From IMG/VR virus record IMGVR_UViG_2671180577_000020: 5,747 bases of DNA; one strand, written 5' to 3'. The stretch is from a virus (lineage: Duplodnaviria > Heunggongvirae > Uroviricota > Caudoviricetes). The notes under the pieces were generated by a model. The model was not told the origin of the DNA. It did no database searches and saw only the letters and a list, made by a program, of their open reading frames with translations. A program made the translations under genes and the position numbers. This document shows, in pieces, positions 104 to 4,733 of the stretch; position 1 is the first letter of the stretch; the number at the start of each line of letters is the position of its first letter.

Positions 104-598
104 ATGAACCGCGTTCTGTGTGTGGTCATCATTGCTCTGCTGGTGGCCTGTGGTGCGCTTAGTCTGGGGCTGAATCATTACCGCGATAACGCCATCACTT
201 ACAAAGCGCAGCGCGATAAAAAAGCCAGTGAACTGAAGCTGGCGAACGCAACCATTACTGATATGCAGGTGCGCCAGCGCGATGTTGCTGCGCTCGATGC
301 AAAATACTCGAGGGAATTAGCCGATGCGAGAGCTGAAAATGAAACTCTGCGTGCTGATGTTGCCGCTGGTCGTAAGCGCCTGCGGATCAACGCCACCTGC
401 TCCGGTACCGTGCGTGAAGCCACCGGCACCTCCGGCGTGGATAATGCAACCGGCCCCCGACTGGCAGACACCGCTGAACGGGATTATTTCATCCTCAGAG
501 AACGGTTGATGACAATGCAGAAGCAGCTGGAAGGGGCGCAGGAATATATCCGCACTCAGTGCACTAAGCTGGCTTTTTATTATCCGGAGGATATATGA
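104..598 (+). CDS. Rz: Rz-type i-spanin (inner-membrane spanin subunit)
   Basis: Protein from the ATG at 104 ([39 protein letters not shown]...VAALDAKY...VAAGRKRL...[11 protein letters not shown]...[12 protein letters not shown]) is near-collinear with lambda Rz as I recall it: N-terminal TM helix, then a coiled-coil periplasmic domain. The track ORF starts at 20, but homology begins at the ATG at 104, which sits just after the upstream stop with GGTGGTGA as a weak SD. Confidence 0.9.
324..509 (+). CDS. Rz1: Rz1-type o-spanin (outer-membrane lipoprotein spanin subunit), embedded in the +1 frame of Rz
   Basis: 61 aa, [61 protein letters not shown]. Signal peptide plus lipobox (LVVSAC), proline-rich mature part, and the conserved [20 protein letters not shown] block of lambda Rz1. 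GAGGGA lies 8 nt upstream of the ATG. It lies entirely inside Rz in another frame, the classic arrangement. Confidence 0.85.
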
Positions 599-819
599 AG
601 AAATTACTGGTAACCGTAAAGCCTTTTCAGGGAACAATTCTGTTCCGTATTTTGCAGCGTGGTCGTGTTCTTGTTGAAGGTTCGTTCAGTGGTAAATGTA
701 CGCAATTACACTCCCGGACCTTTCAGGTGAATGCCACGAATGAAGAGCTAACCGTTGAGTGTACGATGAATGCCGCTAAATGCCGCATGGTATCCGCTGC
801 ATTACAGCCAGTGTGTTGA
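595..819 (+). CDS. hypothetical small protein (74 aa), translationally coupled to Rz; function unknown
   Basis: Its ATG at 595-597 overlaps the Rz stop at 596-598 (ATATGA), with GGAGGA 6-11 nt upstream. Same strand as the late operon. No signal peptide or TM; three Cys in the C-terminal third. No family recognised. Confidence 0.5.
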
Positions 820-1137: not shown

Positions 1138-1151
1138 TATCTGTGCCGGGA

Positions 1152-1484
1152 ATGAAAATGAAAAGAAATCTTCCGTTAATTATTTTGTTGTCTTCTCTGG
1201 TTATGGGCTGTACGCAACATAAAACAGATATGCCCCGACAGTTGGTTAAGGCATTACCACAATATCCGGCCTATGCAGCGGCAAATTATATAAAGGGACG
1301 GGTTGATGTGAAGTTTGATATTGGTGCTGATGGTACTGTCACCCGAATTGAGTTTATCCGTTCAGAGCCGCACCATCTGTTTGATGAGCAGGTTGTAAAG
1401 GCGATGGCAAAATGGCGATTTGAGAAGGACAGGCCGCGTAAAGGCGTGAAGAAAACGTTTATCTTTAGTCCTTCTGCACCCTGA
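1152..1484 (+). CDS. lipoprotein with a TonB C-terminal domain (TonB-CTD-like, lipid-anchored); accessory (moron) gene
   Basis: MKMKRNLPLIILLSSLVMGC-TQHK is a signal peptide with lipobox (VMGC) and Thr at +2. The mature part (PQYPAYAAANYIKGRVDVKFDIGADGTVTRIEFIRSEPHHLFDEQVVKAMAKWRFEKDRP) carries the hallmark TonB C-terminal motif (P.YP..A...EG.V.V.F.V..DG.V..V.......FD..V..A...W.F). Start is ambiguous: GTG 1143, ATG 1152 or ATG 1158; 1152 chosen. Stop TGA at 1482-1484. Confidence 0.8.
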   Translation: MKMKRNLPLIILLSSLVMGCTQHKTDMPRQLVKALPQYPAYAAANYIKGRVDVKFDIGADGTVTRIEFIRSEPHHLFDEQVVKAMAKWRFEKDRPRKGVKKTFIFSPSAP

Positions 1485-1615: not shown

Positions 1616-1816
1616 TCATTTCTCGTTATTTGTCATGCTGGCCGGACGCAGATGCGTTGCATCTGTTGCCAGCCTTCTCCTGCAGGCTTCAATAACCCAC
1701 GCTGAAAAGTTACCGGACCCTTTATGCTCAAGGGCGATGTTGATCTGTTCAATCATGTGATTGGGGAAACGGATATTGCGGGTTGTGGTTCTGCGGGTCC
1801 GGTTTTTCGATGACAT
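1616..1816 (-). CDS. small ribbon-helix-helix-like protein resembling the YlcI/YnfO (DUF3950) family of lambdoid prophages; antisense to the late operon
   Basis: Minus-strand ORF of 66 aa from the ATG at 1816-1814: MSSKNRTRRTTTRNIRFPNHMIEQINIALEHKGSGNFSAWVIEACRRRLATDATHLRPASMTNNEK. Strong SD (TAAAGGAAATAAAT-ATG). The track ORF extends 20 codons upstream, but the internal ATG has the RBS and matches the family N-terminus as I remember it. The family sits just upstream of the terminase region in E. coli cryptic prophages, as here. Family recall is from memory, not a search. Confidence 0.75.
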   Translation of the reverse strand: MSSKNRTRRTTTRNIRFPNHMIEQINIALEHKGSGNFSAWVIEACRRRLATDATHLRPASMTNNEK

Positions 1817-1857
1817 ATTTATTTCCTTTACTGATTGCCATATGACGGGGATTTTAC

Positions 1858-2223
1858 ATGGCTGAGCTTCGTACACTCCAGAGCAGAATCAAAACTCTGA
1901 ACACCCGACGGGTGAATATTCTGAAGGGGGAACAGCGTCGTGTCAGTGGCAGTGCACGTGTTTCCCTCAAGCGTCATATCTGGCTCAGGGATGCCGGGCA
2001 GTGCTGTCTCTGTGGTCGTGTGGTTGACCTCTGTGACAGTGAACTCGATCACCGCATTGCACTTCAGTTCGGTGGTGGTAATGAGGAGACGAATCTCTGG
2101 ACGCTCTGTACCGAATGCCATCGCCAGAAGTCAGTCAGTGAAACGGCGAGTGGTATGCCGGACCCGACGCTGCCGGAGGTGTCCGGAGGTCATGGCAGGG
2201 CAGACGATATCATCGGACTGTGA
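1858..2223 (+). CDS. HNH endonuclease (phage packaging-associated HNH, HK97 gp74-like)
   Basis: 121 aa with the canonical HNH/zinc-finger signature: CxxC (CCLCGR) ... DHRIALQFGGGNEETNLWTLCTECHRQK (D-H ... N ... C..C-H). Sits immediately upstream of the cos-like region and the terminase genes, the conserved position for HNH packaging cofactors. Confidence 0.9.
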   Translation: MAELRTLQSRIKTLNTRRVNILKGEQRRVSGSARVSLKRHIWLRDAGQCCLCGRVVDLCDSELDHRIALQFGGGNEETNLWTLCTECHRQKSVSETASGMPDPTLPEVSGGHGRADDIIGL

Positions 2224-2282
2224 TCCGCCCCGGGGGGGGATCATCCGGCGAAAAAAACGATCGCCCCGGACACCGCCCCCCG
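2224..2282. other. GC-rich dyad-symmetric element, candidate cosN (terminase nicking site)
   Basis: CCGCCCC-GGGGGGGG-ATC (G8 at 2232-2239) ... GATCGCCCCGG ... CACCGCCCCCCG (C6 at 2276-2281). Imperfect inverted repeat CCGGGGGGGGATC / GATCGCCCCGG centred near 2250, between the HNH stop and the TerS start, about 260 bp upstream of TerS. Positional analogy to lambda cosN; the ends are not proven. Confidence 0.3.
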
Positions 2283-2312
2283 TCTCATGCAGAGAAAAAA
2301 TTCCCGTTTCAG

Positions 2313-2440
2313 GCCAGTTAACATGTTAACTGGCTGTTCGGCCTTTTTTCTGTTTTTATCTTTATTATTCAGTTTGTTGTGCGAAAAAAATGTTAACTGG
2401 CTTTTTCAGCAAATGTTAACCAGGCAGCAGTTAACATTTG
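2313..2440. repeat. array of five TGTTAAC/GTTAACA motifs including a perfect 22-bp palindrome, separated by an AT-rich phased T-tract; candidate cosB-like terminase small-subunit binding sites
   Basis: Perfect palindrome GCCAGTTAACATGTTAACTGGC at 2313-2334. AAAAAAATGTTAACTGGC at 2384-2401. Inverted pair AAATGTTAAC (2411-2420) / GTTAACATTT (2430-2439) with a 9 bp spacer. AT-rich tract 2341-2390 (TTTTTTCTGTTTTTATCTTTATTATTC...) could be an IHF or intrinsic bend site. The layout resembles lambda cosB (R sites flanking I1). Confidence 0.45.
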
Positions 2441-2511
2441 CGGCATGAGACGCCGGGAAAAATGGGCTGAACCATACCCGGCTGAGTGCGTTATGGACCC
2501 GGGAGGAGGCT

Positions 2512-3075
2512 GTGCTGACAACGCAAAAACGAAAATTTGCGCTGGCGCTCATGTCCGGGAAAAACAAAACAGCGTCAGCCCTTGCCGCCGGTTATTCGGC
2601 GAAGACAGCCAGGGTTAAAGGCTCGCAGCTGGCAAAAGATCCGGAGGTGCTTGCGTTTATAGCCCGTAAACAGTGCGAGACGGTGGAGGTGGATGAGGTT
2701 CCTGTTTACCGGCAGAAAAAATCAGAGCCGGAGGATAAACCCCGTCGCCGTGAGGCGGCTGCAATACCACAGCCGGACGAAACAAATCCGGAGATGCCAC
2801 CGCCCGTGGTGATATCTCCTGGTATTGAGTATATGGAGGACGGTCTTCCCGATCCGGTGAAAGCGATGGGGCGTCTTCTGGTGGAGAACATTAATACCGA
2901 CCCCAGGCTGGCGCTGGATGCGGCTTATAAGCTGGCGCAGTTCACGCACCACAAAAAAGGGGATGCCGGTAAAAAATCGGCAAAAGGTGACGCGGCGAAA
3001 AAAGCGGCTAACCGTTTTGCGGTGCCACCACCACCCCGCCTGGTGGTGAATAATGATAATGAGGGCAACGGATGA
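2512..3075 (+). CDS. terminase small subunit (TerS; Terminase_2/P27-like HTH type)
   Basis: 187 aa from GTG 2512, preceded by a strong SD GGGAGGAGG (2501-2509). The N-terminus QKRKFALALMSGKNKTASALAAGYSAKTARVKGSQLAKDPEV is the typical TerS HTH region; lysine-rich basic C-terminus. Stop overlaps the TerL start (ATGA at 3072-3075). Confidence 0.85.
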   Translation: MLTTQKRKFALALMSGKNKTASALAAGYSAKTARVKGSQLAKDPEVLAFIARKQCETVEVDEVPVYRQKKSEPEDKPRRREAAAIPQPDETNPEMPPPVVISPGIEYMEDGLPDPVKAMGRLLVENINTDPRLALDAAYKLAQFTHHKKGDAGKKSAKGDAAKKAANRFAVPPPPRLVVNNDNEGNG

Positions 3076-4733
3076 TACCTGTGTGGAGCACGGCATGTCC
3101 GGACTGGGCAGAGCGCCTGAAAAAGGGGCTGTCGATTATTCCGGCTCCGATTTATCCGGACCAGGCTGCACATGCACTGGCGATTTTTAAACAACTGCGG
3201 ATTGTGGATGCACCGGGTAGCCCGACATTCGGGGAGTCCTGTGCACCGTGGGTGTTTGACCTGGTGGCGGCCCTGTTTGGCTCCTACGATGCGCAGACCG
3301 GTGTTCGCCATATCAAGGAAGTGTTTATCCTTATCCCCAAGAAAAACAGTAAGTCCACGCTGGCCGCGGGGATCATGATGACGGCGCTGTTACTGAACTG
3401 GCGGCAGGCGGCGGGCTACACCATTCTGGCCCCGACCGTGGAGGTGGCGGCTAACGCCTTCAACCCTGCCAGGGATATGGTACGACGGGACGATGATCTG
3501 GATGACCTCTGTCAGGTGCAGACACATATCCGGACCATCACCCATCGGGTGACGGACACCACCCTGAAGGTGGTGGCAGCCGATCCGAATACGGTGTCCG
3601 GTATCAAGTCCGTGGGGACACTGATTGATGAACTGTGGCTGTTTGGCAAGCAGTACAAAGCGGAAGACATGCTACGTGAAGCCATCGGCGGGCTGGCTTC
3701 ACGTCCGGAAGGGTTTGTGGTGTACACAACCACCCAGTCGAATGAACCGCCTGCCGGGGTGTTCAGGCAGAAACTGCAGTACGCCCGGGATGTCCGTGAC
3801 GGCAAAATTCATGATCCGCACTTTCTGCCGGTGATATTTGAGCATCCTCCTGAAATGGTGGAAAGCGGGGCTCACCTGCTGATGGAAAACCTCGCCATGG
3901 TTAACCCGAATCTCGGTTATTCGGTGGATGAGGCCTTTCTGTACCGGGAGTATCGTAAAGCCCGGGAAGCCGGGGAAGAGACTTTCCGCGGTTTCATGTC
4001 AAAACACGCCAATGTGGAAATCGGTCTTGCCCTGCGTTCTGACCGCTGGGCGGGCGCGGATTTCTGGGAGCAGCAGGGCAGGCGCGTCAGCCTGGACGAT
4101 ATCCTGCAGCGCGCTGATGTGGTGACGGTGGGGATTGACGGCGGGGGCCTGGATGATCTGCTGGGAATGTACGTGACTGGCCGTGACAGGGAAACCCGCG
4201 AATGGCTGGGCTGGGGCCATGCCTGGGTGCATGAAACCGCGGTGGTCAGACGGAAGAGTGAGGCATCCCGGTTTCAGGATTTTGTGGCCTGTGGAGACAT
4301 GACGATTGTCCGTCGGGTCGGGGATGACACGGCGGAAGTGGCGGAGTATGTGCGTCGTATTCATGAGGCTGAGTTACTGGATCATATCGGTATTGACCCG
4401 TCAGGTGTGGGGCAGATTCTGGATTCACTGGCGGAAGCCGGGATCCCCGATGAGAGTGTGGTGGGGATAAGCCAGGGCTGGAAGCTGGGCGGGGCCATCA
4501 AAACCACCGAGCGCAAACTGGCTGAGGGAGTGCTGGTGCATGGTGGTCAGCCACTGATGGCCTGGTGCGTTGGCAATGCCCGGGTGGAGCCTAAAGGTAA
4601 CGCCATTCTTATCACCAAACAGGCCAGCGGACGGGGAAAAATTGACCCTCTGATGGCGCTCTTCAATGCGGTGTCCCTGATGTCCCTGAATCCGGAACCG
4701 AAAAAGAAAGCGTATGAGGTTTTTTTCATATAA
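3072..4733 (+). CDS. terminase large subunit (TerL; HK97/Terminase_1 family ATPase-nuclease)
   Basis: 553 aa. Deviant Walker A typical of Terminase_1 large subunits (LIPKKNSKST; compare PRKNGKS). The length and the acidic C-terminal half are compatible with a nuclease domain (inference). ATG overlaps the TerS stop (translational coupling). Ends TAA at 4731-4733. Confidence 0.93.
   Translation: MIPVWSTACPDWAERLKKGLSIIPAPIYPDQAAHALAIFKQLRIVDAPGSPTFGESCAPWVFDLVAALFGSYDAQTGVRHIKEVFILIPKKNSKSTLAAGIMMTALLLNWRQAAGYTILAPTVEVAANAFNPARDMVRRDDDLDDLCQVQTHIRTITHRVTDTTLKVVAADPNTVSGIKSVGTLIDELWLFGKQYKAEDMLREAIGGLASRPEGFVVYTTTQSNEPPAGVFRQKLQYARDVRDGKIHDPHFLPVIFEHPPEMVESGAHLLMENLAMVNPNLGYSVDEAFLYREYRKAREAGEETFRGFMSKHANVEIGLALRSDRWAGADFWEQQGRRVSLDDILQRADVVTVGIDGGGLDDLLGMYVTGRDRETREWLGWGHAWVHETAVVRRKSEASRFQDFVACGDMTIVRRVGDDTAEVAEYVRRIHEAELLDHIGIDPSGVGQILDSLAEAGIPDESVVGISQGWKLGGAIKTTERKLAEGVLVHGGQPLMAWCVGNARVEPKGNAILITKQASGRGKIDPLMALFNAVSLMSLNPEPKKKAYEVFFI

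Follow-up and report, generated by a model that had tools for sequence, protein, structure and literature searches.

The window, the whole stretch of DNA analyzed here, covers 5,747 nucleotides of the virus record IMGVR_UViG_2671180577_000020 (Caudoviricetes). This 5.7-kb sequence is the late region of a lambdoid prophage. A gene for an HNH endonuclease, ending in a TGA stop codon at 2221 to 2223, is followed by a noncoding spacer and by the genes for the two terminase subunits, small and large (TerS and TerL). The segment from 2224 to 2282, TCCGCCCCGGGGGGGGATCATCCGGCGAAAAAAACGATCGCCCCGGACACCGCCCCCCG, lies directly 3' of the HNH stop codon and upstream of TerS and TerL, and it contains a run of eight Gs (G8) and a run of six Cs (C6). 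An earlier note, made from the window sequence alone, had proposed that this segment is the genome end of the phage and, more specifically, a dyad-symmetric cosN, the nicking site of a cohesive-end site (cos). The features of the window are collected in Table 1.

Table 1. Coordinates of genes and sequence features in the window (ORF, open reading frame)
Feature	Position	Strand	Remarks
Rz/Rz1 spanin genes	104-598		Rz1 embedded at 324-509
Small ORF	595-819		
Lipoprotein gene with TonB_C domain	1143-1484		Moron-like, 3' of lysis genes
DUF3950 gene	1616-1876	-	
HNH endonuclease gene, 121 aa	1858-2223	+	Pfam HNH PF01844, E=2e-6
HNH-TerS noncoding spacer, 288 bp	2224-2511		
Near-perfect palindrome TGATCCGCCCC-G-GGGGGGGATCA	2221-2243		11-nt arms, 10/11 (91%) complementary; overlaps HNH stop
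G8 run	2232-2239	+	
A7 tract	2251-2257	+	Between G run and cut; A6-A8 in close relatives, not kept in distant ones
GGACAC box	2268-2273	+	Directly 5' of overhang, flanking inferred bottom-strand nick; GGACAC or GAAACC kept across alignment A2
Predicted 10-nt 3' overhang 5'-CGCCCCCCGT-3'	2274-2283	+	Cohesive end, by homology to mapped ends
C6 run	2276-2281	+	
Predicted left genome end CTCATGCAGAGAAAAAATTCCCG	2284-2306	+	Best conserved cos block; A6 tract at +12 to +17
Perfect 22-bp palindrome GCCAGTTAACA/TGTTAACTGGC	2313-2334		Two inverted ATGTTAAC motifs
Three further ATGTTAAC motifs	Region 2387-2441		2390-2397 (+), 2413-2420 (+), 2430-2437 (-)
TerS, small terminase, 187 aa, Terminase_2 family	2512-3075	+	Pfam PF03592; GTG start after GGAGG
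TerL, large terminase, 553 aa	3072-4733	+	HK97-type ATPase plus nuclease; Pfam PF03354 and PF20441
ORF with prohead protease (Peptidase_S78) domain at its start	4797-5747		Runs past window end

The unusual composition that had drawn attention to the segment proved to be real. Its GC content is 72.9%, compared with 54.3% for the window, which places it in the top 0.26% of all 59-nt intervals, and G8 and C6 are the sole runs of at least six Gs or Cs in the window. On its own, G8 was not significant, since 49 of 200 dinucleotide shuffles contained a run of eight G or C, and the DNA fold of 2215 to 2300 was unremarkable (z = -1.9). Rfam and tRNA scans of the window returned nothing relevant. Because such single-sequence statistics are weak, the case depends on comparison with other sequences. 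The segment is not a product of chance, as the HNH-TerS spacer is conserved in Salmonella phage FSL SP-016. The approximately 105-bp spacer of this phage was the sole part found by blastn (80% identity in the local alignment). In a global alignment, the spacer was 73% identical at the nucleotide level, whereas the HNH and TerS genes were 62% and 58% identical, respectively.

The position of the genome end was derived from phages with mapped termini. The Shiga toxin 1 (Stx1) phage Lys8385Vzw, one of the long-tailed Stx-converting phages that are 96 to 98% identical to the window, was induced, its virions were sequenced, and PhageTerm assigned it to the 3' cos class, its genome ending in the cos sequence CGCCCCCCCT (Zhang et al. 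2021, PMC7946995). Window positions 2284 to 2520 are 96% identical to positions 1 to 238 of its deposited record (MT225100). This record ends with ...GGACACCGCCCCCCCT and starts with CTCACGCAGAG at the base matching window position 2284; longer reads of the two termini give ...GATCGCTCCGGACACCGCCCCCCCT and CTCACGCAGAGAAAAAATTCCCG, respectively. Positions 2274 to 2283 are the homologue of the 10 nt with which Lys8385Vzw ends and would form the overhang here; the decamer CGCCCCCCGT is a unique match in the window. Both Lys8385Vzw and the group of BP-4795, 2851, and 1717 share the order HNH, cos, TerS, and TerL with the window. Lys8385Vzw differs from it by one base in the overhang (CGCCCCCCCT instead of CGCCCCCCGT), by G7 instead of G8, and by a few substitutions in the spacer.

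A more distant relative, Acinetobacter phage fEg-Aba01, whose TerL is 53% identical to that of the window, carries 10-nt 3' ends with the sequence 5'-CGCCCCCCAT-3', as determined by PhageTerm and a heat/cool gel assay (Badawy et al. 2020, PMC7354433). In its record, the final 10 nt are annotated as "3' cohesive end," so that the record ends with GGACAC followed by CGCCCCCCAT, and it starts with CGCACGCACAAAAAAAATTCCC. This architecture is matched by the window junction, in which GGACAC is followed by CGCCCCCCGT and then by CTCATGCAGAGAAAAAATTCCC; written out further, the window reads ...GATCGCCCCGGACAC CGCCCCCCGT to the left of the predicted top-strand cut and CTCATGCAGAGAAAAAATTCCCG to its right. 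The two phages belong to the same TerL clade, have the GGACAC box in common, and agree at 9 of 10 overhang positions. They differ in host and in the rest of the genome, and fEg-Aba01 has an extra small ORF between HNH and cos. The record of Pseudomonas phage D3 likewise ends with GGACAC followed by CGCGCCCCCA.

The ends of metagenomic and genomic viral contigs in IMG/VR that encode TerL relatives pointed to the same base. Three contigs start exactly at the position homologous to 2284 (L057, CTCATCGAGG...; L078, CTCATTTACGG...; and L084, CGCACGCAGAC...), and a fourth, L023, starts 1 nt before it. Contigs would be expected to start there if a physical DNA end had halted the assembly. The records of vB_PR2a and r1t have ends that were not set at cos, and that of vB_EcoS_phi330 is also not linearized there; hence, these were uninformative. 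A literature search with the overhang strings yielded unrelated papers only.

From these comparisons, we consider the segment to be, with a probability of roughly 0.88, the cos site, and with it the genome end, of a phage that packages in the HNH-assisted manner of HK97, here a long-tailed lambdoid prophage of the Stx-converting type. The mapped termini of close and distant homologues, together with the contig starts, thus support the proposal that the phage genome ends at this segment. The nicks are inferred to lie between 2283 and 2284 on the top strand and between 2273 and 2274 on the bottom strand. The interval originally marked, 2224 to 2282, contains the C6 run and most of the overhang, but the top-strand cut falls one base beyond it. 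HK97-type cos sites have already been described, both in general and for this phage lineage, and the segment is a known kind of element.

For the comparative anatomy of the site, 80 loci encoding TerL relatives of 66 to 99% identity were fetched, and the site was compared in an alignment (A2) and a position count. A cos-core profile found a match upstream of TerS in nearly all of these relatives. The left genome end follows the consensus C(T/C)CA(C/T)GC..AGAAAAAAT(T/C)CCC, with an A/T tract in either polarity, and forms near-invariant columns in A2. The overhang is C-rich and usually starts with CGCC or CGAC, and it is polymorphic even among close relatives (CGCCCCCCGT, CGCGCCCCCT, CGCCCCCCCT, CGCTCCCCCT, and CGCGCCCCGT). 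The length of the G run varies from 6 to 11 where TerL is at least 89% identical and from 5 to 8 in more distant relatives, and that of the C run varies from 2 to 7 across all relatives. These data agree with the suggestion of the earlier note that the two runs are prone to slippage; the run-length variation and overhang polymorphism could be real slippage or homopolymer sequencing error. We also noticed an inverted repeat, GGAGGTGTCCGG/CCGGACACCGCC (2175 to 2186 and 2266 to 2277), with one arm at the end of the HNH coding sequence and the other at the GGACAC box. Close relatives have this repeat but SP-016 lacks it, and it is probably lineage-specific or due to chance.

The G run itself keeps its place relative to the cut. 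In 50 of 52 nonredundant relatives, a run of 5 to 11 Gs has its last G 41 to 46 nt before the homologous cut, compared with a background of 0.0004 runs of at least five Gs per nt in TerL-relative loci. The last G of the G8 run in the window lies 44 nt before the top-strand cut. The corresponding distances to the genome end are 42 nt in HK97 (G9) and phiE125 (G6), 45 nt in fEg-Aba01 (G6), and 44 nt in Lys8385Vzw (G7). The approximately 30 nt between the G run and the GGACAC/GAAACC box are poorly conserved. The G run is probably an accessory cos element, conserved upstream of the cut, and we regard G8 as a candidate for a cosQ-like or termination element. In locus L088 (PPompW_132418; 2046 to 3504, homologous to about position 2235 of the window), the IS110-family insertion sequence ISEc20 has one of its ends inside the cos G run. 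G7 is found on the far flank of ISEc20 and GGGGG on the cos flank, and the lysis and HNH genes are missing. In O157 PPompW prophages, ISEc20 separates, or replaces, the upstream cos element.

The comparison with cos sites of the HK97 family, which the earlier note had recommended, revealed a shared gene order, a common CGCC start of the overhang, and the G run 42 nt upstream of the end in HK97 and phiE125. HK97 has a 10-nt 3' overhang, and its HNH protein gp74 stimulates cos cleavage (PMC9410871, PMC11331095); as cited in PMC9410871 and PMC13595911, gp74 is required for this cleavage. The 10-base 3' extension of phiE125 was determined experimentally (PMC2920897). The order HNH, cos, TerS, and TerL is common to HK97, phiE125, D3, phiC31, and fEg-Aba01. 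In HK97, as in the window, HNH is the last gene before cos and TerS and TerL are the first after it, so the HNH gene of the window takes the position of that of gp74. As the last gene before the predicted genome end, it presumably encodes a partner of the terminase in cos cleavage. The HNH protein is 68% identical to that of FSL SP-016 and 34% identical to gp70 of phiE125 (E=9e-9), and TerL is homologous to HK97 gp2 (23% identity over the full length; BLASTP E=2e-12).

The HK97 record ends with ...CAGGGGGGGGGATCAAATCTTCAAAACCTTTGCCCCAAATGAC followed by CGCCGCCAAA and starts with GTTTGAATTTAACGCTAACCCGATTTTTTT. Its G9 run is followed by ATCA, GCCCC lies between the run and the end, and an A/T tract is found downstream of the cut. 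The phiE125 record ends with ...GGGGGGAGAAAAAGTCTGG...GGGAC followed by CGCCCGCTTC, and phi644-2 was grouped with phiE125 for the end CGCCCGCTTC. The HNH proteins of HK97 and the window barely align (E=0.085), however, and their TerS proteins belong to different families. The left end of HK97, GTTTGAATTTAACGC..., can be aligned only with a shift of about 9 nt, and the cos profile did not detect the HK97 junction at an E value of 0.01 or lower. The resemblance to HK97 was read from the shared architecture by eye and from one MAFFT alignment. For the window, the assignment to the HK97 type draws on the gene order, on the homology of TerL to gp2, and on homology to mapped 10-nt 3' ends in an identical flanking context.

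The relatives of the window are widespread. Megablast found 94 phage records that match its HNH, spacer, and TerS region at 90 to 98% identity. These are long-tailed Stx-converting phages, including BP-4795, 2851, 1717, YYZ-2008, JLK-2012, and many Stx1a, Stx2a, and Stx2c prophages. The cos region (2150 to 2520) was present in 1249 of 5426 complete Escherichia coli genomes, and a single genome of Shiga toxin-producing E. coli (STEC) can carry as many as 8 copies. The best copy was 98.9% identical, and none of the 5426 genomes contained a 100% match. Another explanation would be that the site is a genuine cos by descent, now disused in a prophage copy that is a noninducible remnant. Many lambdoid prophages are defective, STEC genomes carry several copies, and some copies are disrupted, by ISEc20 in the G run of PPompW prophages and by IS629 in TerL of phage 1717. 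In the window, however, HNH, TerS, and TerL have their full length, none of the cos blocks is broken, and TerL is 97 to 100% identical to that of inducible phages, which makes disuse unlikely. Even the cos of a defective prophage would still be usable in trans by a coresident helper.

The earlier note had likened the segment to the cos site of lambda. In lambda, the overhang is 5' and 12 nt long, cosN is partly dyad-symmetric, the terminase is gpA/Nu1, and cosB contains an integration host factor (IHF) site; no HNH protein is involved. The lambda cos site (cosQ-cosN-cosB) does resemble the window in its tripartite plan, in which the nick site is preceded by one element and followed by TerS sites (candidates in the window) beside the TerS gene. 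Like cosQ in lambda, the first element of the window is a few helical turns away from the nick, on its upstream side; according to the title of a 1998 paper by Cue and Feiss, cosQ is reportedly required for bottom-strand nicking at termination. The lambda-type overhang and dyad, a gpA/Nu1 terminase, and an IHF site were not found in the window, and the homologues have 10-nt 3' overhangs, not 12-nt 5' overhangs as in lambda.

It is very improbable that the G8/CCCC palindrome (2221 to 2243), or the whole G8...C6 dyad, forms a cosN that is nicked symmetrically as in lambda. Such a site is suggested by the 10/11 complementarity of the palindrome and by the imperfect inverted repeat formed by GGGGGGGGATC (2232 to 2242) and GATCGCCCCGG (2259 to 2269). 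It would also suit vB_Pae_CF53a (L090/L089), in which a long perfect palindrome joins G8 and C8 (GGTGGGGGGGGTGAAAATATCCGGCTTCGC...GCGAAGCCGGATATTTTTACCCCCCCCACC) just before the record end; this record starts with CGCAC at the homologous cut. However, the mapped ends of Lys8385Vzw and fEg-Aba01 lie 44 to 45 nt downstream of the G run, and the contigs described above begin at the homologue of position 2284. Around the nick center, pairing is limited to 2 of 15 symmetric positions, so that there is no dyad at the cut, and the CCCC (left) arm of the G8 palindrome is absent from distant relatives in A2. A search with the lambda cosN 12-mer gave matches at chance level, and TerL is not of the lambda gpA type. 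The G8 palindrome was rejected as the nick site because the mapped ends lie elsewhere and the palindrome is lineage-specific. The predicted nick is instead at the C6 end of the segment, with the overhang at 2274 to 2283.

A role in transcription was considered as well, since the segment lies directly 3' of a stop codon and could form an 11-bp stem. In that case, the GC-rich hairpin would terminate transcription, or would stabilize or regulate RNA, where the HNH gene and the late-operon segment end, and it would be unrelated to packaging. The palindrome is followed by a T tract on neither strand, the sequence after it being TCCGGCGAAAAAAA, and a terminator scan of 1800 to 2700 found none; a promoter scan of the same region gave two weak promoter-like matches on the minus strand. 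The fold is not exceptional (z = -1.9), and Rfam gave no match. Relatives keep the G run but not its stem partner, with no compensatory changes that would preserve the stem, and late transcription has to continue into TerS and TerL. We therefore consider this explanation hardly credible. Headful packaging from a pac site, with the segment as only a conserved intergenic region, is the least probable alternative: pac phages such as SPP1 and SF6 also use a Terminase_2 TerS, but the 96%-identical Lys8385Vzw was classed as 3' cos by PhageTerm, the cohesive ends of fEg-Aba01 were confirmed on gels, several contigs start at one identical base, and TerL is of the HK97 type with an adjoining HNH gene.

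The left genome end, 2284 to 2306, is a candidate for the primary TerS recognition site. Farther downstream, five exact copies of ATGTTAAC in both orientations lie within 2317 to 2437, compared with 0.13 expected (0 of 200 shuffles). The 22-bp palindrome that holds two of them has a homologue in relatives, a motif that overlaps the start codon of TerS. SP-016 starts TerS at the ATG of ACATGTTAAC (L001, 4097), and both SP-016-type relatives and more distant ones have a GTTAA..TTAAC motif overlapping this codon (MLT... or MALT...). The GTG start of TerS at 2512 in the window is part of GTGCTGACAACG, a degenerate copy of the motif. Relatives of the FSL SP-016 type do not have the approximately 190-bp spacer that carries the three extra motifs. 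Since TerS of the window aligns with that of SP-016 from residue 1 (MLTTQKRKF and MLTAQKRKY, respectively), the lineage of the window has gained about 190 bp between the cos core and TerS. An ORF of 53 aa that runs through the repeats (2287 to 2448) is probably not a gene. In fEg-Aba01, three AAGTTAAA repeats are found at the same place; these GTTAA-type repeats precede a TerS gene starting with ATGGCATTAACAG and are direct, in contrast to the inverted ATGTTAAC motifs of the window. Together with the A-tract block, the ATGTTAAC repeats (2313 to 2441) may serve as TerS binding sites and are candidates for a cosB analogue.

HK97 TerS binds a 15-bp A-tract site at +15 to +29, and the A tract is read by DNA shape (PMC11331095). 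A site of this kind was not found in the window, where the A tract lies at +12 to +17 and the surrounding sequence differs. The full-length homology of TerL to gp2, together with a TerS of another family, fits a modular cos, in which the upstream part with the nick site is common to HK97 and goes with TerL and HNH, whereas the downstream part differs and goes with TerS.

Several points weigh against the assignment of the segment as an HK97-type cos. The cut in this prophage was placed by homology only. The cos coordinates in the Lys8385Vzw paper are garbled ("50,977-50,953"), and the ends of the deposited record were used instead. TerS of the window belongs to the Terminase_2 family, whereas Pfam gives no match for HK97 gp1 and assigns phiE125 TerS to Terminase_4; with such different families, the HK97 TerS-DNA structure is not simply transferable. 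No IHF consensus was found in 2224 to 2511, even with one mismatch allowed. As to the G run, its distance from the cut is 50 to 51 nt in two relatives, and in vB_Pae_CF53a it lies 56 nt, not 41 to 46 nt, from the record end. The relatives in which the G run was counted are not phylogenetically independent, and the roles given to the G run and to the ATGTTAAC repeats are interpretations.

In the model that we favor, with cos at the HNH-TerS junction, the sequences recognized by TerS would be the A-tract block and the GTTAAC repeats, which lie immediately to the right of the cut. On concatemeric DNA, TerL together with HNH would nick the two strands 10 bp apart beside the GGACAC box, such that this box and the C-rich overhang would make up the nuclease site. 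The resulting virion DNA would carry the 10-nt 3' overhang 5'-CGCCCCCCGT-3' at its right (HNH) end and start with CTCATGCAGAG at its left end, and packaging would proceed to the right, through TerS and TerL. On arrival at the next cos, the motor would meet the G run some four helical turns ahead of the cut, and the run might act as a cosQ-like termination element; alternatively, it might be a poly(dG).poly(dC) segment that helps to stall or position TerL and HNH. In HK97, TerS stalls the motor at cos, and gp74 may cut one of the two strands (PMC11331095, PMC9410871, PMC13595911). Neither the G8/CCCC palindrome nor any pairing of G8 with C6 would be needed. The cut site and the type of end are indicated by homology, while the functions of the individual subsites are suggested from sequence.

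The right ends of 3' cos phages from unrelated hosts were inspected as well (L005, L087, L094-L099, and L101, representing HK97, phiE125, fEg-Aba01, D3, sk1, phiC31, L5, Sfi21, and phi1026b). At 35 to 45 nt from the end, many have a run of at least five Gs, an interrupted G-rich run (D3, GGGGTGGGGCGGG), or, in the low-GC phages sk1 and Sfi21, a C run. An upstream G run is present in HK97, phiE125, phi1026b, fEg-Aba01, phiC31, and L5. A G.C tract about 35 to 46 bp upstream of the top-strand cut might tentatively be viewed as a general, formally undefined subsite of HK97-type cos, although we consider this rather doubtful. We found no description of a G-rich upstream cos element of HK97-type phages in the searchable literature, which does not extend to the older primary papers (Juhala 2000, Kala 2014). 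The recurrence of a G or C run at a fixed distance in experimentally defined 3' cos phages goes modestly beyond that literature and is a lead only.

Elsewhere in the window, the gene for the TonB_C lipoprotein and the opposite-strand DUF3950 gene sit between the lysis cassette and HNH. The ORF that starts at 4797 corresponds to a 1.9-kb gene that is annotated in relatives as "major capsid protein" or "prohead protease." It looks like a protease-capsid fusion, and there is no portal gene between TerL and this ORF.

An exact cos position shows where the DNA of this prophage type, found in 1249 of 5426 complete E. coli genomes, physically ends and in which direction it is packaged. It helps to reorient assemblies and to judge which prophage copies are still packageable, and it also helps to predict cos-dependent mobilization between coresident Stx prophages. 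The comparative anatomy of the site, i.e., the G run, GGACAC, the CGCC-type overhang, the A-tract block, and the GTTAA repeats, provides targets for mutagenesis in the HK97 in vitro packaging system. If the G.C tract were a general subsite, it could signal termination in the manner of cosQ or, as a poly(dG).poly(dC) "speed bump," slow or position the TerL/HNH complex while the filling head nears cos, and slippage in the length of the G run (G5 to G11) could then tune packaging efficiency.

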